DNA from: an uncultured Chitinophaga sp.
GTDB taxonomy: Bacteria > Bacteroidota > Bacteroidia > Chitinophagales > Chitinophagaceae
Assembly: GCA_964652845.1 (NCBI GenBank)
Contig: CAZZDQ010000005.1
Coordinates: forward strand, 22,959 to 86,958
Length of the DNA stretch: 64,000 nucleotides
Reading direction: 5' to 3'
The position numbers were made by a program, and so were the translations under genes. Positions 5,162 to 54,559 of the stretch are shown here, in pieces. The notes under the pieces are model-generated. The model searched no databases and had not been told where the DNA came from. It was given only the letters and a program-made list of their open reading frames with translations. The stretch's first letter is position 1. Each line of letters begins with the position of its first letter.

Positions 5162-6020
5162 AACTTTTTTTCTGCTGGGTGTCTTGCTATTGTTTGCACC
5201 CCCGGCCATTTTTGCCCAGAAAGACTCTGTTCCGGCTACGCCGGTATTGAAATTGCATTATTTCAATTATAATAATAACCAGCAGTATGTATTGCTGGAA
5301 AGCAAACTGAAGAGAGGAAAAATATTCACACCGAATGGAAATATAGCGTATGAGATCTATCTGGACACAGGCAGGACAGAGAACCTGGTAAGTAAAGTAA
5401 AAACGGATGAGGCAGGGATGGCCAAAGCATTTCTTCCGCCCGTTTTAAAATCCATATGGGATGCCAAAGCGCAGCATACGTTCATACTGAAACAGGGGGA
5501 TGAAGAACTGATCACGGATTATATGATCAGCAAATCGAAGATTGATATAGATACTTCATCCTCCGAGGGGGTAAGGAATATCACTGTTACGGTGAAAAAA
5601 ATGGATAACAACAACTGGGTCCCCGCAAAAGATGTGGAAATGAAGGTCGGTTACAAACGGCTGGGCAGTATTCTTTCTGCGGGGGAAAATGATACTTATA
5701 CCACCGATTCGACAGGTAGTGTGACCGTAGAAGTGAAAAAGGATAGTCTGCCCGGGGATGAAAAGGGAAATATCATCCTTGCTGCCCGTGCCGATGACAA
5801 TGAACTGCTGGGGAATCTTGTGGCTGAAAGAATCGTTCCCTGGGGAAGGATCACAAAAATGGATAAGGCCTTCTTTGATAAAAGAACACTCTGGACCACC
5901 CGCAACAGGACACCTGCCTGGCTATTATTACTGGCTTATTCTATAGTGTTAGCTGTTTGGGGCACACTGATCTATCTTATCATTCAACTGGTACGGATCA
6001 AAAAAATGGGCTCATCATAA
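5139..6020 (+). CDS. Hypothetical exported protein with a C-terminal TM anchor
   Basis: Signal peptide, beta-rich body, hydrophobic C-terminal helix; overlaps the NrfD-like stop, so it is co-transcribed. Confidence 0.75.
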   Translation: MKKLYYNKTFFLLGVLLLFAPPAIFAQKDSVPATPVLKLHYFNYNNNQQYVLLESKLKRGKIFTPNGNIAYEIYLDTGRTENLVSKVKTDEAGMAKAFLPPVLKSIWDAKAQHTFILKQGDEELITDYMISKSKIDIDTSSSEGVRNITVTVKKMDNNNWVPAKDVEMKVGYKRLGSILSAGENDTYTTDSTGSVTVEVKKDSLPGDEKGNIILAARADDNELLGNLVAERIVPWGRITKMDKAFFDKRTLWTTRNRTPAWLLLLAYSIVLAVWGTLIYLIIQLVRIKKMGSS

Positions 6021-31902: not shown

Positions 31903-31910
31903 TATATTTG
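31903..31910 (+). promoter_or_regulatory. -7 promoter box TATATTTG of mnmG
   Basis: TAnnTTTG ending 6 nt before the ATG at 31917. Confidence 0.65.
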
Positions 31911-31916
31911 CACCCA

Positions 31917-33779
31917 ATGTTTCCTGAATATGACATAATTGTAGTTGGCGCTGGTCATGCCGGCTGTGAAGCTGCAGCCGCGGCTGCAAATCTTGGATCC
32001 AGTACACTATTGATTACCATGAATTTACAAACAATTGCCCAAATGAGTTGTAATCCGGCCATGGGCGGAATTGCCAAGGGCCAGATTGTTCGGGAAATTG
32101 ACGCAATGGGTGGGTATTCAGGAATTGTCACAGATCTTTCAATGATTCAGTTCAGGATGCTGAATAAAAGCAAGGGACCTGCCATGTGGAGTCCCAGGGC
32201 TCAGAGCGACCGCATGCTATTTCACTTGAAATGGAGGGAGAAGTTAGAAAATACAAGTAATCTCGATTTTTACCAGGACACAGTTAAGTCATTGATTGTA
32301 AAAGGTAAAACCTGTGTTGGCGTAATTACAAATATGGGGAATGAGATTCGCGCAAAAGCAGTTGTGCTTACTAACGGAACATTTTTGAATGGAATCATTC
32401 ATATTGGCGAAAAAAATTTTGGAGGCGGAAGAATGGCTGAAAAATCCGCCACGGGAATTACTGAGCAGTTAGTGGAAATGGGTTTTGAGAGTGACAGGCT
32501 GAAAACAGGGACTCCGCCCCGGGTGGACGGCCGAAGCCTGGATTATAATAAAATGGAAGAACAACCCGGCGATGAAGAGATCACCGGGTTTTCATTCCTG
32601 GATATACCCAAACCTTCCAGCCAAAGATCCTGCTGGATCACCTATACAAATGAAACAACGCACGAGATCTTAAAGACCGGATTTGACAAAAGTCCAATGT
32701 TTACAGGAAGGATAGAAGGAGTGGGTCCCCGATATTGTCCGAGCATCGAAGACAAGATAAACCGGTTCGCGGAAAGAAAAAGACATCAGTTGTTCATTGA
32801 ACCGGAGGGCTGGAATACAGTGGAAGTATATGTAAACGGGTTTTCAACTTCACTACCAGAGTCAGTGCAATACGAAGCTCTTCGTACAATACCGGGATTT
32901 GAAAAAGCAAGGTTCTTCCGGCCGGGTTATGCCATCGAATATGATTATTTCCCGCCCACCCAATTGCATTATACCCTCGAAACAAAGGTCATTGATCATT
33001 TATTCTTTGCCGGGCAGATCAACGGCACCACAGGTTATGAAGAAGCAGCCTGCCAGGGTCTGATGGCCGGCATCAATGCCCACCAAAAGATCAGGAGAAA
33101 AGAACCGGTAATACTGAAACGAAATGAAGCGTATATCGGGGTCCTCATTGACGACCTGATCAGCAAAGGAACACAGGAACCTTATCGCATGTTCACATCA
33201 AGGGCTGAATTCAGGACCTTGTTACGCCAGGACAATGCCGACCTCCGTCTTACTGAAAAAAGCTGGCAACTGGGACTGGCTTCTGCAGAAAGAATGCAAA
33301 AAGTAAAGGCAAAGAAAAATGATGTTGAAAAGATAAAATCCCTCTTGAATGAAATGATATTAGAGCCCGGACAGATCAATGAATGGCTGCAGTCCATTGG
33401 TTCGTCCGCCATCACTGAAAAACAAAGGGCGGAAAAAATCCTTTTGCGGCCGGGGATTGAACTGGAGGATATCATAATGGCTACTGGTAACCTGAAAAAA
33501 GAACTGGGGTCTTATCCTGCCGAATCCCTCGAACAGGCAGGTATCCAGGTCAAATATGACGTATACATTGAAAGAGAAAAAGAATTGGCAGTCCGTATGC
33601 TGCAACTGGAAGAACTTGAAATACCGGAATCATTCAATTATTCAAAGATCCTTTCACTGGGAAATGAAGCAAGGGAAAAATTAATGAGGATCAAACCACG
33701 TACCCTGGGGCAAGCCAGTCGTATCTCCGGGATCAATCCAAGTGATGTACAGATATTGATGGTGTATATGGGAAGGTGA
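31917..33779 (+). CDS. mnmG: tRNA uridine-5-carboxymethylaminomethyl(34) synthesis enzyme
   Basis: GAGHAGCEAA, SCNPAMGG, RLKTGTPPR, GPRYCPSIEDK and GQINGTTGYEEA motifs. Confidence 0.98.
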   Translation: MFPEYDIIVVGAGHAGCEAAAAAANLGSSTLLITMNLQTIAQMSCNPAMGGIAKGQIVREIDAMGGYSGIVTDLSMIQFRMLNKSKGPAMWSPRAQSDRMLFHLKWREKLENTSNLDFYQDTVKSLIVKGKTCVGVITNMGNEIRAKAVVLTNGTFLNGIIHIGEKNFGGGRMAEKSATGITEQLVEMGFESDRLKTGTPPRVDGRSLDYNKMEEQPGDEEITGFSFLDIPKPSSQRSCWITYTNETTHEILKTGFDKSPMFTGRIEGVGPRYCPSIEDKINRFAERKRHQLFIEPEGWNTVEVYVNGFSTSLPESVQYEALRTIPGFEKARFFRPGYAIEYDYFPPTQLHYTLETKVIDHLFFAGQINGTTGYEEAACQGLMAGINAHQKIRRKEPVILKRNEAYIGVLIDDLISKGTQEPYRMFTSRAEFRTLLRQDNADLRLTEKSWQLGLASAERMQKVKAKKNDVEKIKSLLNEMILEPGQINEWLQSIGSSAITEKQRAEKILLRPGIELEDIIMATGNLKKELGSYPAESLEQAGIQVKYDVYIEREKELAVRMLQLEELEIPESFNYSKILSLGNEAREKLMRIKPRTLGQASRISGINPSDVQILMVYMGR

Positions 33780-43411: not shown

Positions 43412-44998
43412 ATGAAAAAACATTTTTTAAAAGCGTTCTTGTTCGGGGCAGTCATCACCTTACTGGCATCCTGTACCAAGGACCTGAACAGATCGCCGAA
43501 ATATGATGTTACATCCGTAAATGTCTATAAGGATATAACAGGCTATAAGGAAGTGCTGGCAAAGATCTATGCGGGATTGTCCACTACCGGGAATTCGGGT
43601 CCTGATGGGAACGGCGATATCCAGGGTATCGATGAGGGTTTTTCCAGTTACCTGCGCCAGTACTGGCAGACCCAGGAATTACCCACAGACGAAGCCGTGA
43701 TCGGCTGGAATGATGCCACGATCAAGGATTTTCATAATATGGTGTGGAGCTCCAGTGATGTATTTATCAGGGCGATTTACTATCGCATTTATTTTCAGAT
43801 CACCCTCTGCAATGAGTTCATCCGGGAAAGCACACCTTCCAAGCTAAGTTCAAGAAATATAACCGGCGCTGATGCAACAGAGATCGGCTATTTCAGGGCA
43901 GAAGCCCGGTATCTGCGTGCTTTGAGTTATTACCATGCGCTCGACCTGTTCGGCAATGTGCCCTTTGTCACTGAAAACGATCCCATCGGTTCATTTTTGC
44001 CCAGCCAGATCACAAGACCTAACCTGTTCAATTATATCGAATCCGAACTGAAAGCCATTGAAACCCTGTTAAAACCGGCCAAGAGCAATGAATACGGAAG
44101 GGTGGATGCTTCTTCCGACTGGGCCTTGCTTGCAAAACTTTACCTGAATGCTGAAGTGTACACCGGAACAGCCCGTTATTCAGATGCCGTCAGTTATTGC
44201 AATAAAGTCATCGCTGTAGCCGGCTATTCACTTGTCAATCCCTATCGTTATTTATTCCTGGCTGATAATAATGCCACTTCCACCAGCGAGATCATTTTCC
44301 CGGTAACATTTGACGGAAACAAAACAAGGACCTGGGGCGGGACTACCTACCTTGTACACGCCCCGGTTGGCGGTTCCATGAGCCCTTCCGCACAGGGTGT
44401 CGATTTCGGCTGGGGAGGACTTCGCTGCACTAAACAATTTGTACAGAAATTCCCCGATCCGAGCGGCGCTACTGACACAAGGGCAAATTTCTATACCAGC
44501 GGGCAAAACCTTGATATCAACGATGTATCCTCATTTACGGATGGCTGGGCGATCATCAAATTCAGGAATGTCACTTCCACCGGGGCACCGGGTTCCAACC
44601 CTACCTGGGTGGATACCGATTACCCTATGTTCCGTTTGGCAGAAATATACCTGACCTATGCTGAATGTGCCACCCGGGGTGCAGGAGATGTGAACACGGC
44701 TGTTACGTATATCAACCTGCTTCGTCAAAGAGCTTACGGGAATGCATCCGGCAATATCACACTCGCTCAACTCACGCCCCAGTTTGTACTGGATGAAAGG
44801 GCAAGGGAACTGTATTGGGAAGCTACAAGGCGTACAGACCTGATCCGCTACGGGCAGTTCACTACCAGTTCATATTTATGGGCATGGAAGGGTGGTGTTT
44901 CGGGCGGGCAGGCAGTAGGAAGTTACCGGAATTTATACCCGATCCCATCTTCGGATGTTACGGCTAATCCAAACCTTCAACAAAATCCCGGATATTAA
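43412..44998 (+). CDS. susD: SusD/RagB-family lipoprotein
   Basis: Lipobox LASC, AEARYLRA, FRLAEIYL, ERARELYWE and QNPGY motifs. Confidence 0.96.
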   Translation: MKKHFLKAFLFGAVITLLASCTKDLNRSPKYDVTSVNVYKDITGYKEVLAKIYAGLSTTGNSGPDGNGDIQGIDEGFSSYLRQYWQTQELPTDEAVIGWNDATIKDFHNMVWSSSDVFIRAIYYRIYFQITLCNEFIRESTPSKLSSRNITGADATEIGYFRAEARYLRALSYYHALDLFGNVPFVTENDPIGSFLPSQITRPNLFNYIESELKAIETLLKPAKSNEYGRVDASSDWALLAKLYLNAEVYTGTARYSDAVSYCNKVIAVAGYSLVNPYRYLFLADNNATSTSEIIFPVTFDGNKTRTWGGTTYLVHAPVGGSMSPSAQGVDFGWGGLRCTKQFVQKFPDPSGATDTRANFYTSGQNLDINDVSSFTDGWAIIKFRNVTSTGAPGSNPTWVDTDYPMFRLAEIYLTYAECATRGAGDVNTAVTYINLLRQRAYGNASGNITLAQLTPQFVLDERARELYWEATRRTDLIRYGQFTTSSYLWAWKGGVSGGQAVGSYRNLYPIPSSDVTANPNLQQNPGY

Positions 44999-46199: not shown

Positions 46200-47237
46200 A
46201 TGTTCGGGCAACTTAAAAAAATCATTCCCTGTTTATTCATGGCTGTCATCGGCTGCAGCAAGTCCGGCTCTTATAATAATTCGGGCGGTGGTGGCGGAAA
46301 CCCGCTGAGCCCATCATTTGTAAAGGGCGCCGATGTAAGCTGGTTGACTGAAATGGAAAGTGCCGGGATAAAATTTTACAATAGTGCAGGTACGGAAACC
46401 GAATGCATGACCCTGATGAAATCCCTCGGGATGAACACGGTTCGTTTCCGGGTATGGGTGAATCCCACGCCCTCCTGGAATAATGCCGCAGATGTGGTGG
46501 TCAAAGCTGTGAGGGCAAAGAACCTGGGGCTGCGTGTGATGATCGATTTCCATTACAGCGATACCTGGGCTGATCCTGGACACCAGACAAAGCCGGCTGC
46601 ATGGACCACACAGGATTTTGCAACTTTAAAAACTTCCTTGGCTACACATACCTCCGATATGTTGAACCAGCTTAAAACGGCCGGCGTGACACCTGAATGG
46701 GTACAGGTCGGCAATGAAACCAATGACGGTATGTTATGGCCTGACGGGAAAGCTTCGGTCAATATGGCCAATTTTGCCCAATTGGTTAATGCTGGTTATG
46801 ATGCAGTGAAAAATGTTTTTCCGGCAACGAAGGTGATCGTGCATATTTCAAATGGGTTTGATAATAATTTGTTCAGATGGGTATTTGACGGCCTTACGGC
46901 AAATGCTGCCAAATTTGATGTGATCGGGATGTCATTGTATCCGCCCGTGGCCAGCTGGTCTTCCTATAACACACAATGCCTGGCCAATATGAATGATATG
47001 GTGAGTCGTTATAATAAAGAGGTGATGATGGTGGAAGTGGGTATGCCCTGGACCAATGCAGCGGAATGCAAGGCATTCTTAAGTGACCTGATCACGAAAA
47101 CAAATTCGGTGGCAAATAGCAAGGGGCTGGGGGTGATATACTGGGAGCCGGAAGCTTATAATAACTGGAAAGGATATTCCCTGGGTACCTTTGATAATAG
47201 CGGGAAACCTACCATTGCCCTGGATGCTTTTCAATAA
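46200..47237 (+). CDS. GH53 endo-1,4-beta-galactanase (lipoprotein)
   Basis: GADVSW, RFRVWVNP, DFHYSDTWADPG, QVGNE, MVEVG and YWEP motifs. Confidence 0.93.
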   Translation: MFGQLKKIIPCLFMAVIGCSKSGSYNNSGGGGGNPLSPSFVKGADVSWLTEMESAGIKFYNSAGTETECMTLMKSLGMNTVRFRVWVNPTPSWNNAADVVVKAVRAKNLGLRVMIDFHYSDTWADPGHQTKPAAWTTQDFATLKTSLATHTSDMLNQLKTAGVTPEWVQVGNETNDGMLWPDGKASVNMANFAQLVNAGYDAVKNVFPATKVIVHISNGFDNNLFRWVFDGLTANAAKFDVIGMSLYPPVASWSSYNTQCLANMNDMVSRYNKEVMMVEVGMPWTNAAECKAFLSDLITKTNSVANSKGLGVIYWEPEAYNNWKGYSLGTFDNSGKPTIALDAFQ

Positions 47238-47297
47238 ATGGCCTTGTACAACTCCTTATTTGCCCCGGTTGGGAGAATTAAACCAGCCCCGAAAATT

Positions 47298-47305
47298 TAT
47301 ATTTG
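47298..47305 (+). promoter_or_regulatory. -7 promoter box TATATTTG
   Basis: TAnnTTTG 20 nt upstream of the ATG at 47326. Confidence 0.5.
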
Positions 47306-47325
47306 TCCTAATCAATCATTGCGGT

Positions 47326-50300
47326 ATGCGAACATATTCCCTCCTTTATATAATACTGTGTTTATTCCTGTTCTGCAATTTATCCCTCTGCGCACAAAAA
47401 AGAACAAACCTTGATGAGAACTGGAAATTTCATTTTGGCCATGCTGCCAACCCTGATAAGGATTTTAATTACAGCCTGGCAACCATTTTCGCGAAAAGCG
47501 GTGGAGCTGCCCGGACGGCTATCGACCCGCGTTTCAATGACAGTACCTGGAGAACGGTGAGCCTGCCGCACGACTGGGCTGTCGAATTACCCTTCGTTGA
47601 ACATCCCGGCTTTGAAGTTGAATCGCATGGATACAAACCGGTGGGCGGATATTTTCCGGAAACAAGCATTGGATGGTACCGGAAAAAATTCAGGGTGGAT
47701 CCCGCCGACAGCGGTCAGCGTTTTCAGTTGCAGTTTGACGGGATCTTCCGCAATGCGATGATATGGGTGAATGGTTTTTTTGCCGGCAATAATATGAGTG
47801 GATATATCGGAGCTTCCTATGATGTTACCGATTTTATCAGCTTCAGCAGGGATAATGTGATCGTGGTAAGGGTGGATGCCACGCAGTATGAAGGCTGGTT
47901 CTATGAAGGGGCGGGCATCTACAGGCATGTGTGGTTAAATCAATACAATAATATACATATTCCTGACGGAGGTTTGTTTGTATACGCAGAGGTTTCAGGG
48001 AATGCCGCTACGCTCAATATTGAAACGACCGTTGAGAATCAAAACAACGATATTGTCAACACTTCGGTCTATTCATACATCACTGCAAGGAACGGGCAAA
48101 TCATTGCACAATCAAAAGAACAACCACTTACACTGGCACCGGATGGCAGGCTATCGGTCAACCAGAAATTGCAGGTTCTCAGCCCGCATTTCTGGAACCT
48201 GGATGATCCTTATTTATACAGGGTTGTTTCGGTTGTAAAAACAGGCAACAAGGTTGTATTTACAAAAAAGGAAAGATTCGGTATCCGAAGTTTTCGCTTT
48301 GATGCCAACGATGGTTTTTTTCTCAATGGGAAATACATGAAGATACAGGGCACCTGCAATCACCAGGACCATGCAGGCCTGGGAAGCGCCTTGCCCGATT
48401 ATATTCAATACTACCGGGTCCGCCTGCTGAAGAATATGGGTGTGAACGCCTGTCGTACCAGTCACAATCCACCTGCACCGGAATTCCTCGAAGCCTGTGA
48501 CAGCCTCGGGATGTTGGTATTAGACGAACAACGGCTGCTCAACAGCAGTCCGGAATACATGAATCAATTTGAAAGGATGATCCTGCGTGACAGGAACCAT
48601 CCTTCCATATTTATGTGGAGTATCGGTAATGAAGAAGGCTGGATACATACAAATTCCTTCGGCAAGCGCATAGCACAGACATTTATTGCAAAACAAAAAG
48701 AACTGGACCCTTCCCGGACCTGCACCTATGCCGCTGATGTGGCCAATGTCTTTAACGGGGTGAATGAAGTGATCCCCGTGCGCAGTTTCAATTATCGCCA
48801 GTTCGGTGTGGCAGATTACCACCGGGACCATCCTGCACAACCGCTGATGGGCACAGAAATGGGCAGCACGGTAACGACCCGCGGGCAATATGCAAAGGAT
48901 TCCGTTCGCGGTTACCTGCCCGATCATGATATCACCGCACCCTGGTGGGCCAGTACGGCGGAGACCTGGTGGAAACTGGCTGCAGAAAATAAATACTGGA
49001 TGGGTGGATTTGTATGGACAGGCTTTGACTATCGCGGGGAGCCTACTCCCTTTCACTGGCCCAATATCAATTCTCATTTCGGGATCATGGATATGTGCGG
49101 GTTCCCCAAGAACAATTATTACTATTATCAAAGTTGGTGGACGAATGAGGATGTGCTGAATATCTCTCCGCACTGGAATTGGCCTGTCAATTGGGGAGAA
49201 GCCCCACCCATTATTGATGTTTGGGTGAACAGTAATGCAGACAGTGTTCAGTTATTATTGAACAATAAAAGTTTGGGCACGAAAATAATGCCAGGGAACG
49301 GGCATTTGCAATGGGATGTAAAATATGCACCCGGTAAATTAGAAGCAATTGGGTATAAAAGCAGGAAATCACTTCATGCACAGGTTGAGACCACCGGTGC
49401 TCCCGCTGAAATTGTTTTAACGCCCTATAAAACTACCATGCTTGCCGACGGAAAGGATGTAACGGTGATGAATATGAGCATCATTGACCGCGAAGGGAGG
49501 GAAGTGCCTGATGCAAATAATATGATCCGCTTCACCATTAGCGGGCCGGGAAGGATCATCGGGGTGGGTAATGGTGATCCGAGCAGTCATGAGCCGGATA
49601 AATGTATGGACGGCGCCTGGCAGCGCAGTGCTTTCAACGGGAAATGCCAGGTGATCGTACAGTCAGAAAATAAGCCGGGCATCATTAAATTCCAGGCTAC
49701 CTCACCCGGGCTATGGAGCGGGGGCACAGATATTATCACTGTTTCACCGGGCAGCGCAGCAAGCGTGACCATAGATAAAAAATACCAGTTATCGGGCGAA
49801 GCGGCCAAACCGCATGAGGCAACAAAGATGATCGGGGCCGATATCTCATTCCTACCTCAGCTTGAGGACCGTGGTATGAAATTCAGCGATACCGGAACGG
49901 AAACGGATGCGATCAGGATCATGAAGGCACATGGTTTTAATTATGTCCGTTTGCGCATCTTTAATGATCCGGCCCGTGATAGCGGCTATGCACCGGGCAA
50001 AGGATTCTGCGACCTGGCGCATACAAAGCAAATGGCAAAACGGGTAAAGGATGCGGGGATGAAACTCCTGCTGGATTTCCATTACAGCGATTACTGGGCT
50101 GACCCGGGAAAACAATTCAAGCCTGCCGCCTGGCGCAACCTGGATTTTGAACAACTCAAACAGGCGCTCTATGATTATACAAAGAATGTCATCTCAGCAC
50201 TAAAACAACAAGGTACGGCGCCGGACATGGTGCAGATCGGGAATGAGATCAATCACGGAATGGTATGGCCGGAGGGCAGCATCGCTCATATTGATAGTCT

Positions 50301-50736
50301 TGCACAATTGGTGAACGCGGGCATTGCCGCCGTAAAATCAGTAGAACCTTCCACCGTCATAATGCTGCATATTGCCCTGGGCGGACAAAACGATGAATCC
50401 GTTTTCTTTATTGACAATATGCTGGCCCGGAGTGTACCTTTTGATGTAATCGGCCTTTCTTACTATCCCAAATGGCACGGCACGCTGGATGACCTGCGGA
50501 ATAATATGCGTGATCTGGTAAGACGTTATGACAAGGACATCATCGTGGTGGAATATTCGGCGAAGAAAGAAGAAGTGAACAAGCTGAATTTTGAATTGCC
50601 CGATGGGAAAGGAAAGGGCACCTGTATCTGGGAGCCATTAAGCACATGGGAAAAATTCTTTGATAATGACGGGAAGAGCAACCAGTACCTGAAAATGTAT
50701 GACGGGATCAGCAAACAATATTTGGATAACCGGTAA
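47326..50736 (+). CDS. GH2 beta-galactosidase fused to a C-terminal GH53 galactanase domain
   Basis: GH2: GAGIYRHV, NHQDH, RTSHNP, WSIGNEE, GTEMGS, GFDYRGEP. GH53: GADIS, DFHYSDYWADPG, QIGNE, VVEYS. Confidence 0.92.
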   Translation: MRTYSLLYIILCLFLFCNLSLCAQKRTNLDENWKFHFGHAANPDKDFNYSLATIFAKSGGAARTAIDPRFNDSTWRTVSLPHDWAVELPFVEHPGFEVESHGYKPVGGYFPETSIGWYRKKFRVDPADSGQRFQLQFDGIFRNAMIWVNGFFAGNNMSGYIGASYDVTDFISFSRDNVIVVRVDATQYEGWFYEGAGIYRHVWLNQYNNIHIPDGGLFVYAEVSGNAATLNIETTVENQNNDIVNTSVYSYITARNGQIIAQSKEQPLTLAPDGRLSVNQKLQVLSPHFWNLDDPYLYRVVSVVKTGNKVVFTKKERFGIRSFRFDANDGFFLNGKYMKIQGTCNHQDHAGLGSALPDYIQYYRVRLLKNMGVNACRTSHNPPAPEFLEACDSLGMLVLDEQRLLNSSPEYMNQFERMILRDRNHPSIFMWSIGNEEGWIHTNSFGKRIAQTFIAKQKELDPSRTCTYAADVANVFNGVNEVIPVRSFNYRQFGVADYHRDHPAQPLMGTEMGSTVTTRGQYAKDSVRGYLPDHDITAPWWASTAETWWKLAAENKYWMGGFVWTGFDYRGEPTPFHWPNINSHFGIMDMCGFPKNNYYYYQSWWTNEDVLNISPHWNWPVNWGEAPPIIDVWVNSNADSVQLLLNNKSLGTKIMPGNGHLQWDVKYAPGKLEAIGYKSRKSLHAQVETTGAPAEIVLTPYKTTMLADGKDVTVMNMSIIDREGREVPDANNMIRFTISGPGRIIGVGNGDPSSHEPDKCMDGAWQRSAFNGKCQVIVQSENKPGIIKFQATSPGLWSGGTDIITVSPGSAASVTIDKKYQLSGEAAKPHEATKMIGADISFLPQLEDRGMKFSDTGTETDAIRIMKAHGFNYVRLRIFNDPARDSGYAPGKGFCDLAHTKQMAKRVKDAGMKLLLDFHYSDYWADPGKQFKPAAWRNLDFEQLKQALYDYTKNVISALKQQGTAPDMVQIGNEINHGMVWPEGSIAHIDSLAQLVNAGIAAVKSVEPSTVIMLHIALGGQNDESVFFIDNMLARSVPFDVIGLSYYPKWHGTLDDLRNNMRDLVRRYDKDIIVVEYSAKKEEVNKLNFELPDGKGKGTCIWEPLSTWEKFFDNDGKSNQYLKMYDGISKQYLDNR

Positions 50737-50785: not shown

Positions 50786-51937
50786 ATGACGGGAAAAAAT
50801 GTTAAAGAGATTTTTCAGCAGAAGTTTTCTTCCGCGCCCCTTCTTGTCCGTTCTCCCGGCAGGGTGAACATTATCGGGGAGCACACCGATTATAATGAAG
50901 GGTTTGTGTTGCCTGCAGCAATTGACAAAGCGGTGTATGTGGCTGCCGGCAAAAGAGATGATGATGAGATCCGTCTTCATTCGGTAAATTTTAGGGAAGA
51001 TCATCATGTTTTGCTGCAAGCGATACGGCCTACCCGGAACTGGGCAACCTACATTCTTGGCATAGTAAGCCAATTACAACGACATGGATATAATATTCAC
51101 GGGTTTAACCTTGCGATTGACGGGGATATTCCCATTGGAGCCGGGCTATCATCCTCGGCTGCGGTTGAATGTGCAGTGATCCATGCCCTGGATAAATTAT
51201 TTGAACTCGGCATTGATCCCATGGACAAGGTAAGGATGGGACAAAAGGCCGAGCATGAATATGCAGGGGTTTTATGCGGTATCATGGACCAATTCACCTG
51301 CATGTTCGGGAAAAAAGAGCAGGTCATTAAACTGGATTGCCGCTCCTTGCACTACGAATATCATCCGTTGCAGCTCAATCAATACAGCCTGGTATTATTC
51401 AATACGAATGTAAAACACTCCCTTGCTTCGGGCGAATACAATACACGGCGCCGGCAATGTGAACAGGGGGTTGCGCTTTTAAAGAAACATCATCCGCCGG
51501 TGAAAAGCCTGCGAGACGCAACGATTGAAATGCTGGATAAATATGTTTTACCCCGGGATAAACTGGTCTACCGGCGATGCAAATACATAATGGAGGAAAA
51601 CCAGCGGCTCCTGGCTGCCTGGTATGACCTGCAGCATGGGGATATCCCTGCTCTCGGAGAAAAAATGTTTGCCACGCATGAAGGATTGCGTCATGATTAT
51701 GAAGTCAGCTGCCCCGAACTGGATTACCTGGTGGATGCCCTGAAGAATGACCCTGCCGTAGCGGGTGCACGGATGATGGGCGGAGGTTTTGGCGGCTGCA
51801 CGATAAATATCATTGAAAAGAACAGGGTGGGGGAAATCATTGAAAGGGTCAGCGCTGCGTATAAAAAAGAAATGCAGCTGGAACTGACACCTTATGAGGT
51901 TAATATCTCGGATGGTACATCCTTAATAAATGTATGA
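50786..51937 (+). CDS. galK: Galactokinase
   Basis: PGRVNIIGEHTDYN, GAGLSSSAA, CGIMDQ and GARMMGGGFGG motifs. Confidence 0.96.
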   Translation: MTGKNVKEIFQQKFSSAPLLVRSPGRVNIIGEHTDYNEGFVLPAAIDKAVYVAAGKRDDDEIRLHSVNFREDHHVLLQAIRPTRNWATYILGIVSQLQRHGYNIHGFNLAIDGDIPIGAGLSSSAAVECAVIHALDKLFELGIDPMDKVRMGQKAEHEYAGVLCGIMDQFTCMFGKKEQVIKLDCRSLHYEYHPLQLNQYSLVLFNTNVKHSLASGEYNTRRRQCEQGVALLKKHHPPVKSLRDATIEMLDKYVLPRDKLVYRRCKYIMEENQRLLAAWYDLQHGDIPALGEKMFATHEGLRHDYEVSCPELDYLVDALKNDPAVAGARMMGGGFGGCTINIIEKNRVGEIIERVSAAYKKEMQLELTPYEVNISDGTSLINV

Positions 51938-51997
51938 TGTCCGATTACTGTTCTTTTGGTAATATTGTCCTGCGAAGGATACCCTAAATCAGAAATT

Positions 51998-53668
51998 ATG
52001 CATAGCCGGTTATTGCCCGGGGATTTTATTGTCTTCATCATTTATTTTTTCGTGGTGGCCAGTTATGGCTACTGGATCTACCGCAAAAGAAAAAGTCGTG
52101 AGCACGATTCCAAGGCCTTCTTCCTTGCTGAAGGCTCGCTGACCTGGTGGGCCATCGGCGCTTCCCTGATCGCATCCAATATTTCTGCCGAACAATTTAT
52201 CGGCATGAGTGGCAACGGTTATTTTGTGGGGATCGCAGTAGCGGCTTATGAATGGATCGCAGCTGTGGCCCTGATCATCATTGCCATCTGGTTCATGCCG
52301 GTTTATTTGAAGAATAAGATCTATACCATGCCGCAGTTCCTGAAAACCCGGTATAATGAAACGGTATCGGTCATCATGGCTGTATTCTGGCTCTTTCTTT
52401 ATGTTTTTGTCAACCTCACTTCCATATTGTATTTGGGGTCGGTTGCCATCAGCGGCCTGGTGGGCGCGCAGTATATTCATCTTATCATGATCGCACTGGC
52501 GGCATTTGCCATTGTCATCACATTGGGAGGCATGAAAGTGATCGGCTATACAGATGTGATCCAGGTACTCGTGCTGATCATTGGCGGAATTGTCACCGTT
52601 GTCATAGCGCTGGATAAGGTTAGTGGCGGACACGGACCACTGAATGGATTGACGACGGTTATGAAAGAAGCCCCCGATCATTTCCATATGATACTTGCCA
52701 AGCCCGATTCCTCATCCCCCCAGGATTATATCAATAAATACCTGATCCTTCCCGGCATACTCATGTATGCCGCGGGACAATGGATCGCCAACCTGAATTA
52801 CTGGGGATGTAACCAGTATATCACACAGCGCGCACTGGGAGCCAATTTGCCAACCGCGAGAAAAGGACTCGTATTCGCTGCTTTTCTTAAACTGTTGATG
52901 CCGGTGATCGTGATGTTACCGGGTATCGCGGCATTTGTATTACAAAAACACGGTACCATACCCGCTCTCGCAACCCAGGATGGGGCGTATTCATCTGTAC
53001 TTGGATTCTTGCCGGCAGGAATAAGAGGGCTGTCTGTCGCTGCGCTCACCGCTGCGATCGTAGCATCATTAGCCGGAAAGGCCAACAGTATTTCGACCAT
53101 CTTTACCCTTGATATCTATAAAAAATACATCAACAAAGGGGCGGAAGAGAAAAAGATGGTTATCACGGGCAGGGTAGCCGTGCTTTGTGCAATGATCCTT
53201 GCCATCCTCTTTACCTGGAATGACCTGCTGGGGATCGGCGGCGCTGGCGGATTTACATTCATCCAGAAATATACCGGTTTCATCAGCCCGGGGGTATTTG
53301 CCATGTTCTTGCTGGGCCTGTTTTGGAAACGCACCACCGGCACGGCTGCCATTGCAGGACTCCTTACAGGGTTTGTATTATGCGTTTTCTTCAATGAATT
53401 TGCGCCGCAGGTATTCGGGAATGATACTTTCTTTTACACAGCCTACCCGAACGGTAAAGGTGGTTATGAGATTCCCTTCCTGATCGCTATGGGATTATCA
53501 TTCATGTTTGCGGTGATTGTAATGGTGATCCTTAGCCTGGCGGGGCCCAGGATAAACCCCAAAGCATTTGCCCTGGATAAAGAAATGTTCAGGATCAAAC
53601 CTTCCCTGCTGGTCCAGATCGTTATCGTATTGTTGATACTGACGGCTCTCTATGTGAAGTTCTGGTAA
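51998..53668 (+). CDS. Sodium:solute (galactose-type) symporter
   Basis: ASNISAEQFIGMSG, YWGCNQYITQRALG and ASLAGKANS motifs. Confidence 0.93.
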   Translation: MHSRLLPGDFIVFIIYFFVVASYGYWIYRKRKSREHDSKAFFLAEGSLTWWAIGASLIASNISAEQFIGMSGNGYFVGIAVAAYEWIAAVALIIIAIWFMPVYLKNKIYTMPQFLKTRYNETVSVIMAVFWLFLYVFVNLTSILYLGSVAISGLVGAQYIHLIMIALAAFAIVITLGGMKVIGYTDVIQVLVLIIGGIVTVVIALDKVSGGHGPLNGLTTVMKEAPDHFHMILAKPDSSSPQDYINKYLILPGILMYAAGQWIANLNYWGCNQYITQRALGANLPTARKGLVFAAFLKLLMPVIVMLPGIAAFVLQKHGTIPALATQDGAYSSVLGFLPAGIRGLSVAALTAAIVASLAGKANSISTIFTLDIYKKYINKGAEEKKMVITGRVAVLCAMILAILFTWNDLLGIGGAGGFTFIQKYTGFISPGVFAMFLLGLFWKRTTGTAAIAGLLTGFVLCVFFNEFAPQVFGNDTFFYTAYPNGKGGYEIPFLIAMGLSFMFAVIVMVILSLAGPRINPKAFALDKEMFRIKPSLLVQIVIVLLILTALYVKFW

Positions 53669-53682
53669 GAATCCTAACAAAT

Positions 53683-53719
53683 TAAAAGCCCTTATAAATT
53701 CTTTTTATAAGGGCTTTTA
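53683..53719. terminator. Bidirectional terminator
   Basis: Perfect stem aaaagcccttataaa/tttataagggctttt between the symporter and the convergent tRNA-like gene. Confidence 0.85.
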
Positions 53720-53734
53720 TCATTCAGGAAGTTG

Positions 53735-53919
53735 CTGTAGGGGGAGGAGTCGAACCTCCACGGAGCAGTTAGCCAAAAAGCAAAGATCAGTGGTCAACCC
53801 TGGTCGGCATTGACTCCCGATCGGAATCGGGATAACGTCGGCTCTACTTTTCGTTTATCCTGTGCTCTCCACCCCCGAGACAAGGGGGCATGTCTGCCAA
53901 AAAGTTTCATCACCCCACA
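53735..53919 (-). tRNA. Expanded tRNA-Asp(GUC)-like RNA with a 112-nt variable region
   Basis: Acceptor TGTGGGG/CCCTACA with G73; D-stem ATG/CAT; anticodon stem CCCCC/GGGGG with loop TTGTCTC; T-arm GGAGG-TTCGACT-CCTCC; no encoded CCA. Confidence 0.8.
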
Positions 53920-54060
53920 GTATTGATCGGATCAGCGTATCAGCGATCCTTAAAAGAACTTACAGCGTTACGATGGAATAAAATTAAGAGTTCTGACAAT
54001 ATTATTAGTCATTATTCAAATTAAATTTATAAAATATATTTATTGTTTAAAATATATCAT

Positions 54061-54094: not shown

Positions 54095-54559
54095 ATGGCA
54101 TATGATTTAAATATTGACAAACTGGACCTGCAGATCATTCATCATATGATGGAGAATGCCGGGATCTCTTATGCAGAGTTGGGAAAGAAACTATTTGTTT
54201 CTGCCGGAACCATTCACGTACGGATAAAAAAACTGGAGCAGGCGGGCATTGTAAAAGGGACCAAATTAAAAGTGGATGTAAAAAAGCTGGGGCATGATGT
54301 GGTGGCCTTTATCGGCATCTACCTGAAAGAAAGCTCCCTCTATGACAGTGTAGCGAAAGAACTTCAAAAATTGCCTGAGATCGTCCGGTTGAATTATACC
54401 ACCGGCAATTACAGCATGTTCGCGGAGACAGTATGCCGGGATATTTCTGCCTTGAAAAATGTGCTGCACGACCAATTGCAGAAGATCAAAGGCATTGAGC
54501 GCACCGAGACCTTTATTTCCCTGGAAGAGAACTTCAACCGGAATGTGAAGGTCCTATAG
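54095..54559 (+). CDS. asnC: Lrp/AsnC-family transcriptional regulator
   Basis: N-terminal HTH (ISYAELGKKL...VSAGTIHVRIKKL), YTTGNYS, TETFIS. Confidence 0.92.
   Translation: MAYDLNIDKLDLQIIHHMMENAGISYAELGKKLFVSAGTIHVRIKKLEQAGIVKGTKLKVDVKKLGHDVVAFIGIYLKESSLYDSVAKELQKLPEIVRLNYTTGNYSMFAETVCRDISALKNVLHDQLQKIKGIERTETFISLEENFNRNVKVL

Follow-up and report, generated by a model that had tools for sequence, protein, structure and literature searches.

What does a bacterium do with an RNA that has the body of a tRNA, the anticodon-side identity of tRNA-Asp, a first base pair belonging to substrates of the amidotransferase GatCAB, and a variable arm of 109 nucleotides (nt)? The question is raised by a 64,000-nt stretch of DNA from an uncultured Chitinophaga sp. 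(contig CAZZDQ010000005.1), called here the window, in which the minus strand of positions 53735-53919 encodes a tRNA-shaped RNA of 185 nt. A first-pass annotation of the same DNA regarded this element as a conserved functional expanded tRNA or tRNA mimic, and this judgment is borne out by plentiful homologues with covarying stems and by very high expression. It is nearly certain that the gene is functional and that its product, a stable RNA of tRNA shape present in very large amounts, belongs to a large family. As for its role, we put forward tentatively, from sequence features and gene context, that the RNA may be a tRNA-like Asp/Asn chimera that does not decode and that serves as cofactor of a GatCAB-dependent synthesis of asparagine under the control of AsnC.

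A Conserved RNA Family with an Intact tRNA Core

A covariance model built from relatives of the RNA has a single match in the 64 kb of the window, at 53735-53920 (119 bits, E = 2e-30). U1 of the mature RNA is 53919 and the discriminator G73 is 53735; homologous RNA contigs span 53735-53905, and the edges of DNA homology fall at about 53733-53734 and 53919-53925. Acceptor, D, anticodon and T arms lie on the minus strand where the first-pass annotation had placed them, and their stems covary within the family. The 5′ strand of the acceptor stem, UGUGGGG (53913-53919), pairs with CCCUACA (53736-53742), which together with G73 makes up the 3′ strand (53735-53742), and is followed by U8 and G9 (53912-53911). 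The D arm (53890-53910) has a stem of three base pairs (bp), AUG/CAU, and a loop, AAACUUUUUGGCAGA, that contains A14, G18-G19 and A21; the U-richness of this loop, listed earlier as an atypical feature, is present in the window copy and turns out to be lineage-specific within the family. In the anticodon-like arm (53872-53888), a CCCCC/GGGGG stem carries the 7-nt loop UUGUCUC, with G34 at 53881, U35 at 53880, C36 at 53879, U37 at 53878 and C38 at 53877, and the arm is flanked by G26 (53889) paired with U44 (53871). The T arm, GGAGG-UUCGACU-CCUCC, occupies 53743-53759. The RNA has no reading frame or tag and no G3-U70, and CCA is not encoded, CAAC being the sequence next after G73.

The variable-arm domain (53762-53870, 109 nt) contains three helices, V1 (GGAG/CUCC, 53870-53867 with 53765-53762), V2 (CAG/CUG, 53862-53860 with 53768-53766) and V3 (53852-53845 with 53782-53775). 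A conserved unpaired internal loop, GAUAAAC (53859-53853) opposite GGCUAA (53774-53769), separates V2 from V3, and a conserved distal hairpin, A-GGGUUGACCAC-U, occupies 53789-53801. The remainder is a lineage-specific expansion (53802-53844) with a 7-bp hairpin (53832-53815) capped by UCCG, and on either side of the hairpin stands one copy of the direct repeat GCCGAC (53842-53837 and 53808-53803). In relatives, other hairpins stand between the same GCCGAC repeats, like the exchange of a hairpin cassette. A structured insert in this place had been recognized before, and it is indeed large and covarying; its supposed closing helix GAGCA/UGCUC and the stem GGAUAAACG/CGUUAUCC have to be abandoned, because the family supports the V1/V2/V3 register, although those segments are complementary in this one sequence.

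Relatives were collected with a pattern composed of the two conserved loops (GGTTGACCA, a gap of 25-45 nt, and GGTTCGANTCC) from IMG/VR and from GTDB, the latter with one genome per species. The scan gave at least 119 viral contigs in IMG/VR and at least 120 loci in GTDB, where about 15 chance matches in other phyla were removed; true members number about 103 among the genome matches listed, all of them in Bacteroidota, and phage contigs with the RNA are more than 90. Near-identical words are found in soil, biofilm, sludge and river metagenomes and in soil metatranscriptomes. The family is present in Chitinophagales (Chitinophaga, Niastella, Puia, Flavihumibacter, Lacibacter, Filimonas, Saprospiraceae, Lewinellaceae and Haliscomenobacter), in Pedobacter, and in Cytophagales (Spirosoma, Larkinella, Persicitalea, Arcicella, Flectobacillus, Aquirufa, Leadbetterella, Lacihabitans and Roseivirgaceae); no isolate of Flavobacteriales or Bacteroidales is among the matches listed. 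Two members are in bins named "uncultured Citrobacter sp." (L168, 7929-8000) and "uncultured Bacteroidaceae bacterium" (L222, 3219-3366), labels that are probably binning or naming errors.

The fold of the single window sequence barely beats shuffles (z = -1.9), so that the case rests on comparative data. When 60 short family members were aligned, 98.1% of the structure cells were paired and compensatory changes were found in 25 of 37 pairs, values that none of 500 shuffles reached, and structures slid by 1-3 columns paired at 44-61%. All four cloverleaf stems covary and the nucleotides of the tertiary interactions are conserved: six of the seven acceptor pairs covary, the D stem appears as AUG/CAU, GUG/CAC, GCG/CGC or ACG/CGU, and compensatory changes affect three of the five pairs of the T arm, whose loop GGUUCGAnUCC is conserved but formed part of the search pattern. 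The insert behaves likewise, with compensatory changes in 3, 3 and 6 pairs of V1, V2 and V3, respectively, a nearly invariant internal loop between V2 and V3 (5′ GAUAAAC, 3′ GCUAA), and a closing pair of the distal hairpin that, read by eye, varies complementarily among U-A, G-C, A-U and C-G. The hairpin sequence GGGUUGACCAC is invariant in the same alignment, whose members had been selected with GGTTGACCA in the search pattern. Across the family the variable region ranges from about 36 to 135 nt; the expansion (53802-53844) is its most variable part in homologues, with many substitutions and indels at 53809-53832, and is missing from members of 141-148 nt. Several genomes carry tandem copies, and a second paralogue of 109-121 nt occurs in Pedobacter and some Chitinophagaceae. 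The GGGUUGACCAC hairpin is missing from this short paralogue, in which the acceptor end (UGU...ACA-G), the GUCUC loop and the internal loop are all retained. At L155, for example, the short copy lies at 5196-5310 and the long one at 5385-5530, and tandem paralogues are also found at L120, L148, L152, L158, L164, L167, L172, L183, L200, L207, L213, L215 and L217. The RNA is thus a member of a conserved, structured RNA family.

Expression and Maturation of the RNA

Is the gene expressed, and is the insert retained? In four soil metatranscriptomes, homologous contigs are limited to the region equivalent to 53735-53905, with a summed word depth of up to 1.2 million. A transcriptome close to a Chitinophaga locus has a depth of about 2x10^5 over the RNA versus 150-650 over the flanking genes, and in two soil RNA runs the long Pedobacter RNA reaches 2.5x10^6 and its short paralogue 3.8x10^5, with flanks below 10^3. 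No splice joints were seen in the Chitinophaga-like transcriptome run; apparent skips in the soil runs carry other letters between their two sides and so represent homologues with different inserts. The first-pass annotation had named two outcomes that would speak against a functional expanded RNA, namely a lack of covarying homologues and of expression, or excision of the insert, and neither occurred. A decayed tRNA, a phage attachment-site scar or an intron-split tRNA-Asp has, accordingly, next to no claim on this locus, for the likeness to an interrupted tRNA is superficial. Decay is ruled out by covariation throughout the family, insert included; a spliced intron, by the abundant full-length RNA and the lack of joints within a lineage; and a prophage attachment site, by the core chromosomal character of the genes examined around the RNA and by phage contigs that hold complete copies rather than half sites.

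Several observations bear on how the ends of the RNA are made. Read depth of a homologue drops more than 1000-fold directly 3′ of G73, and head-to-tail junction contigs from two runs start exactly at U1. Promoter-like boxes (cTTTAATATTGc or TAnnTTTG) stand 40-100 nt upstream of U1 in relatives, and in the window a putative Bacteroidota -7 box, TAATATTG, lies at 53997-54004 on the minus strand, from which a 5′ leader of about 75 nt would be made and presumably removed. These boxes suggest that the RNA has its own promoter and 5′ leader; with boxes so far upstream of U1, the leader would have to be removed, and the ends suggest processing like that of a tRNA, in which an enzyme such as RNase P would cut at U1. 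In one Pedobacter junction contig, the base after G73-C74 is C in place of the genomic A, a non-templated, CC-type extension that indicates, on thin 3′-end evidence, the action of a CCA-adding enzyme. The lack of an encoded CCA and a strong terminator downstream, both of which had been pointed out before, are confirmed, the latter as an intrinsic terminator with a 16-bp hairpin and a U-tract (53719-53683, minus strand) between the RNA gene and a convergent symporter gene.

Ends of cDNA or contigs with adapter pile up at nt 11-12 in two lineages (about 53906-53908 in the window; 5396 in L155), and the 5′ acceptor strand, conserved in DNA, is nearly missing from RNA contigs. Reverse transcription may have been halted by a modification of G9 or G10, or at U8; library bias is another possible cause of the pile-up.

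That standard scanners would miss the RNA had been anticipated. ARAGORN finds no tRNA or tmRNA gene anywhere in the 64-kb window, and it never called the RNA in 60 phage loci, though it called tmRNA genes elsewhere in them. Rfam 15 at gathering thresholds has no match for the RNA, including none to tmRNA or Y RNA families, and a search of 53650-54000 at E values up to 10 brought up only overlaps with the terminator hairpin or near-chance matches (His_leader, trpB, miRNA). Two phage copies compared by blastn with 50,697 GenBank phage records gave no match, so that at this sensitivity no cultured phage is known as a carrier. Our literature search found no published description of the family. One motif reported from IMG/VR, DNAVirus_1850, with 27 occurrences, one of which overlaps an ARAGORN call of tRNA-Asp (Fremin et al., 2023; PMC10690425), possibly belongs to the phage branch; that study proposes neither a function nor a host homologue for the motif and contains no link to AsnC and no analysis of identity elements. 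Hence the family appears to be previously uncatalogued, tRNA-derived and, by its sequence features, non-decoding, and a function in asparagine synthesis would be new if the mechanism proposed below is right.

An Aspartate Anticodon Loop Joined to a GatCAB-type First Base Pair

Aspartate identity has five strong determinants, G73, G34, U35, C36 and C38, and two minor ones, G2-C71 and G10, and G1-C72 is strictly conserved in bacterial tRNA-Asp (PMC9976931). How the RNA stands in this respect was tallied in 104 distinct bacterial copies and 78 scored viral sequences. The Asp elements noticed in the first-pass annotation (G34, U35, C36, C38 and G73) are present and invariant in all 104 bacterial copies, and so is the atypical U37, with the loop NNGUCUC throughout; equally invariant are U1-A72, G2-C71, U3-A70 and U8-G9. 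The U1-A72 pair had escaped that annotation, as had the AsnC neighbour and the phage copies. U1-A72 is kept in 74 and G73 in 75 of the 78 viral sequences. At position 33, 85 of the 104 bacterial copies have U and 17 have C, as do most phage copies, and position 10 is A in 73, G in 22 and U in 9. Position -1 varies as well (C in 54, U in 31, A in 19), which, with RNA junctions that put the 5′ end at U1, disposes of a formerly suggested eighth acceptor pair between C53920 and G73.

Seen from bacterial tRNA-Asp (GUC), the RNA shares U8, A14, G18-G19, the T loop GUUCGAnUC, the five determinants and G2-C71, and its loop differs from the YUGUCAC of tRNA-Asp at one position, U37 for A37. It departs from tRNA-Asp in that position 33 is not always U, in U1-A72, in the giant variable region and in not being called by ARAGORN or the Rfam tRNA model. 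The first pair is of consequence for amidation: with bacterial GatCAB (AdT), amidation of the Asp on a tRNA is promoted by U1-A72 and prevented by G1-C72, and an extra U20A in tRNA-Asp is a further AdT antideterminant (PMC1635274). Canonical tRNA-Asp genes in the phage contigs have G1-C72 in six of seven cases and the loop YUGUCAC in all seven. Judged from sequence, then, the RNA is a chimera, in which the anticodon-side identity of tRNA-Asp is combined with the first pair of a GatCAB substrate.

Two more conventional ways of reading these elements can be weighed at this point. The RNA might be a decoding tRNA-Asp isoacceptor with an expanded variable arm, for it has a full cloverleaf, a GUC anticodon, G73, high expression and, in phages, a tRNA-gene setting. 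Canonical tRNAs have, however, a purine at position 37, strictly U at 33 and a variable region of 4-5 nt (class I) or a single arm of no more than about 24 nt (class II); the RNA has U37 in 104 of 104 copies, C33 in 17 bacterial and most phage copies, a variable arm of 70-135 nt and U1-A72 in place of G1-C72, and the carrier phages also possess canonical tRNA-Asp. We consider decoding very improbable. Alternatively, SerRS could recognize the RNA by its long arm and G73, as it does tRNA-Ser and tRNA-Sec, and the serine could then be converted on the RNA, since G73, G2-C71 and a large variable region are serine determinants in bacteria (PMC9976931). This is more improbable still, given that position 72 is A and not C and that the neighbour survey of the bacterial loci, given in the next section, revealed no SelA- or PSTK-like gene; moreover, SerRS ignores the anticodon, so that the invariant GUCUC loop would be left unexplained.

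Linkage to an AsnC Orthologue

Which genes accompany the RNA? When the neighbours of the 103 bacterial loci were clustered, one dominant partner emerged, a regulator of 150-160 amino acids (aa) that in 72 of the 103 genome loci is encoded upstream of the RNA on the other strand, at a median distance of 167 nt. In the window it is a 154-aa protein encoded at 54095-54559 on the plus strand, divergent from the RNA gene. It scores 170 bits against the NCBIfam AsnC model NF008384 versus 62 for Lrp, is 47% identical to Escherichia coli AsnC over 146 residues (E = 2e-46), and its close homologues bear the Joint Genome Institute (JGI) name "regulator for asnA, asnC and gidA". The converse comparison started from 80 metagenome loci chosen by the AsnC protein alone, of which 75 had enough upstream DNA. 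All of these 75 informative loci contain the RNA, divergent and about 150-330 nt from asnC. The linkage of the RNA to this AsnC orthologue is strict. In E. coli, asnC and asnA are divergent neighbours, and here the RNA holds the position of asnA.

AsnC genes beside asnA in Bacteroidota without the RNA were also looked for: the metagenome scan gave only close relatives, all with the RNA, and a search with E. coli AsnC gave Enterobacterales only. Five more distant AsnC-like proteins (43-55% identical) have genes for an S41 peptidase, an amidohydrolase, MutS and others as neighbours, and no asnA. Apart from the regulator, a gene for TrmB, the tRNA m7G46 methyltransferase, lies downstream in 20 loci, and neither a conserved aminoacyl-transferase gene nor a TROVE/Rsr gene was seen near the 103 loci.

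Two side observations concern the AsnC gene. At locus L325, a match on the minus strand (2718-2846; 17.5 bits, E = 0.002) lies about 155 nt upstream of, and divergent from, a distant AsnC-like gene (44% identity); it starts UUGUGCUGUG and has a loop with GUC, and it is either a very diverged relative or a chance match, too weak to count. In the window, mnmG (gidA) lies at 31908-33779, about 20 kb from asnC, and in E. coli the genes mnmG, mioC, asnC and asnA stand side by side next to oriC.

Phage Copies and a Possible Scaffold Role

In viral contigs the RNA is found in or beside tRNA arrays of up to 25 genes, which include canonical tRNA-Asp and tRNA-Asn, and phage tmRNA genes occur within a few kb of it (L003, L030, L032, L033, L042, L046, L050, L053, L058, L061, L062, L072, L076, L077, L078 and L080). 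In 58 viral loci the RNA follows a small open reading frame (ORF) by 5-25 nt. The phage branch has a feature of its own: a perfect palindrome of 6-12 nt stands 2 nt after the distal hairpin (GGUUGACCAN) in 69 of 76 distinct phage copies, against a shuffled expectation of 27%, and is made of 21 different words, for instance GCGCGC, AGCCGGCU and GCUUGCAAGC (examples are L003, 587-743; L016, 212-354; L002, 4789-4956). In bacterial copies palindromes are not enriched (37% vs 30% shuffled). A fixed position with changing words suggests that the phage palindrome is self-complementary and possibly dimerizing, by pairing of the kissing-loop type.

Other features of these phages were noted in passing. 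Several of the tmRNA-bearing contigs (e.g., L042 and L080) have arrays of about 20 tRNAs, many phage tmRNA tags are long and of the form ...TFEDAMAFVGADYAVAA, and most phage tRNA-Asn genes have G1-C72 rather than U1-A72. A function as packaging RNA was considered and dropped, for only one phage lineage has the RNA flanked by a 170-aa ORF and the large terminase gene, and other phages have it in tRNA arrays.

A second, unrelated tRNA-like family occurs in the same phages. Its members have the form UAGUCAGG-UGGCGGAAUUGGUAGACGC-(40-100 nt, hypervariable, with no anticodon arm)-ACAGGUUCGAAUCCUGU-CCUGACUA, are present in several copies per contig with a different insert in each, and are never called by ARAGORN. 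From sequence this family looks like a natural scaffold of the tRNA-Leu type with variable cargo. Copies lie in L015 (1223-1347, 1408-1512), L038 (4343-4505, 4588-4707, 9980-10113), L039 (10173-10280, 10394-10517, 10650-10808), L065 (3315-3438, 13813-13914, 14130-14228, 14448-14555) and L094 (2656-2763, 4499-4609, 4669-4772).

These phage RNAs bear on a quite different understanding of the window RNA, namely that it is a tRNA mimic or scaffold and no aminoacyl carrier. The GUCUC loop and the arm would then bind a protein (AspRS, GatCAB or another) or an RNA, the tRNA frame would serve RNase P and CCA processing and stability, and the whole would work as a sponge, a regulator or a scaffold for assembly, perhaps in response to asparagine by way of AsnC. 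Very high abundance agrees with such a role, as do the invariant modules of the arm, GAUAAAC/GCUAA and GGGUUGACCAC; the tRNA-Leu-like frames with hypervariable cargo point to the use of such scaffolds in the same phages, and the position-fixed palindrome suggests RNA-RNA pairing. Class II AspRS approaches its tRNA from the side of the variable region, as in the yeast AspRS-tRNA-Asp complex, and a giant arm on that side may prevent charging. A scaffold, on the other hand, needs no invariant G73, U1-A72, G2-C71, G34, U35, C36 and C38, which are fixed in 104 of 104 copies and are positions read by AspRS or GatCAB, and the non-templated 3′ C suggests that the acceptor end is kept ready. On this balance a scaffold function, the chief rival to a role in asparagine synthesis, is possible and yet somewhat unlikely.

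A Possible Cofactor for Asparagine Synthesis

Why should a bacterium with AsnRS keep GatCAB? An enzyme survey of 547 genera (Table S1 of PMC4206432; AsnA, AsnB, GatCAB, AspRS, AsnRS and GlnRS, with the column order deduced here from known organisms) includes Pedobacter, Chitinophaga, Niastella, Haliscomenobacter, Leadbetterella and Spirosoma, all of which have AsnRS, GlnRS and GatCAB and are devoid of AsnA. These six are the genera shared between that table and the RNA matches, and their GatCAB status is taken from the published table only. Pedobacter is without both AsnA and AsnB; the same holds for Solitalea, which is not among the RNA matches (PMC4206432). Conversely, the RNA is not found among the matches listed in the GatCAB-less genera Bacteroides, Barnesiella, Parabacteroides, Prevotella, Porphyromonas, Capnocytophaga, Flavobacterium, Cellulophaga, Zobellia, Sphingobacterium and Saprospira. 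The authors of the survey regarded the role of GatCAB in such organisms as unclear and thought that it may be tRNA-dependent asparagine synthesis (PMC4206432).

A scheme for asparagine synthesis on the RNA can be drawn from these elements. First, because exactly the five strong AspRS determinants are kept, it is proposed that AspRS would charge the RNA, with its intact L-shaped tRNA core, with aspartate. Second, U37, the frequent C33 and the large variable arm would keep the RNA off the ribosome. Third, because the first pair is U1-A72 and not G1-C72, GatCAB is proposed to amidate the RNA-bound Asp to Asn. Transcription would be governed by the divergent AsnC, in the place that asnA occupies beside asnC in E. 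coli, and the phage copies would presumably sustain the supply of asparagine during infection. Charging by AspRS, amidation by GatCAB, the response of AsnC to asparagine and exclusion from the ribosome by the variable arm are all inferred. The fullest form of the proposal, in which a dedicated asparagine cofactor working off the ribosome would replace asnA, explain the retention of GatCAB and have been captured by phages with a dimerizing loop, is doubtful enough to be offered as a possibility only.

A number of points weigh against such a cofactor. The phyletic match is suggestive but statistically weak, as it covers about three independent lineages, an exact-pattern scan and the matches listed only. 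The same genera also have a tRNA-Asn with U1-A72, so that a dedicated cofactor is not strictly needed, and distant AsnC-like genes stand without asnA or the RNA beside them, so that AsnC orthology is no proof of an asparagine regulon. On the side of AspRS, the G1-C72 pair of tRNA-Asp, which helps to position the acceptor end, is replaced by U1-A72, and the large variable arm, facing the synthetase, could block its binding. On the side of GatCAB, three D-loop nucleotides (C-A-G) separate G19 from the 3′ stem strand, apparently one nt over the minimum, and because the D stem has only 3 bp the loop numbering is ambiguous with regard to U20A. The evidence for CCA amounts to one or two junction contigs, and RNA ends abutting the adapter at G73 without CCA also occur. 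Finally, the scheme gives no route for the release of Asn from the RNA.

The Asp-charged RNA could also feed some other non-ribosomal process, such as modification of the envelope, of lipids or of peptides, without GatCAB. AspRS determinants are conserved while decoding features are missing, just as this would demand, and the staphylococcal non-proteinogenic tRNA-Gly and the pseudo-tRNA of Bacillus cereus (PMC3399842) are precedents for aminoacyl-tRNAs outside translation. No aminoacyl-transferase gene is conserved nearby, though, and such a process would leave unexplained the invariant U1-A72, the neighbouring asnC and the presence of GatCAB in hosts that do not otherwise need it, which makes it improbable. 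Asparagine synthesis on the RNA, should its mechanism prove true, would make this the first tRNA-derived RNA devoted to the synthesis of a free amino acid and not to decoding, would answer why GatCAB persists alongside AsnRS and GlnRS, the question posed in PMC4206432, and would be a natural case of tRNA identity sets recombined and insulated from translation.

Comparison with Known tRNA-like Systems

How does the RNA compare with tRNAs that change their amino acid, or have left translation? In its predicted chemistry it resembles the tRNA-Asn of the asparagine transamidosome, the substrate of non-discriminating AspRS and GatCAB, with which it shares U1-A72, G73 and the same predicted route through Asp and subsequent amidation. 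Unlike this tRNA-Asn, it has the anticodon GUC and not GUU and a giant arm, and by the route predicted from its sequence no delivery of Asn to the ribosome is expected; since GUC is an Asp anticodon, a discriminating AspRS would suffice. tRNA-Sec likewise has a long variable arm and G73 and carries an amino acid that is converted to another apart from ordinary decoding, a conversion that is predicted for the RNA, but tRNA-Sec reads UGA together with SelB and has just one short helix as its arm, and neither its determinants nor its 8/5 geometry are seen in the RNA. Staphylococcal cell-wall tRNA-Gly and the tRNA-Other of Bacillus cereus (PMC3399842) keep synthetase recognition with little or no use in translation, in which the RNA would resemble them; they are of normal tRNA size and lineage-restricted, whereas the RNA has an extra domain, is spread over three orders and has phage copies.

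tmRNA and the Y RNA YrlA (PMC4201824) are comparable in their abundance and stability, in having a tRNA-like module and in being carried by phages as well. Unlike tmRNA, the RNA has no tag frame and no alanine G3-U70 determinant; unlike YrlA, its ends form a normal acceptor stem, and no Rsr/Ro60 neighbour was seen in the 103 loci. RNAs C and D of phage T4 (species 1 and 2) are small stable RNAs in the phage tRNA cluster that are processed together with the tRNAs. To our knowledge, they are confined to T4-like phages and have no host counterpart.

Whatever its function, the RNA ranks with the most plentiful small RNAs in a major group of soil and freshwater bacteria, and the summed contig depth is extreme in some soil metatranscriptomes. 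Once it is annotated, a considerable part of the soil metatranscriptome reads that current RNA catalogues leave unexplained would be accounted for, and the RNA would join the short list of widely conserved housekeeping RNAs.

Chromosomal Neighbourhood in the Window

The neighbourhood of the RNA in the window is ordinary chromosome, with no prophage genes among the genes examined. To the far side of the terminator from the RNA gene lie a SusD-family gene (43412-44998), a gene for a 1181-aa fusion protein of GH2 and GH53 (47191-50736), a galactokinase gene (50786-51937) and a sodium-solute symporter gene (51956-53668) that is convergent with the RNA gene; by its gene content, the segment 43412-53668 looks like a cluster for utilization of galactan and galactose. 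Other neighbours encode an Opp-type permease, an inositol monophosphatase and an S41 peptidase, and none of gat, aspS and asnS is among the ten large window ORFs that were scanned. The hairpin of the terminator is a near-perfect palindrome and scores on both strands in Rfam leader models, so that it probably terminates both convergent genes, that of the RNA and that of the symporter, which ends at 53668.

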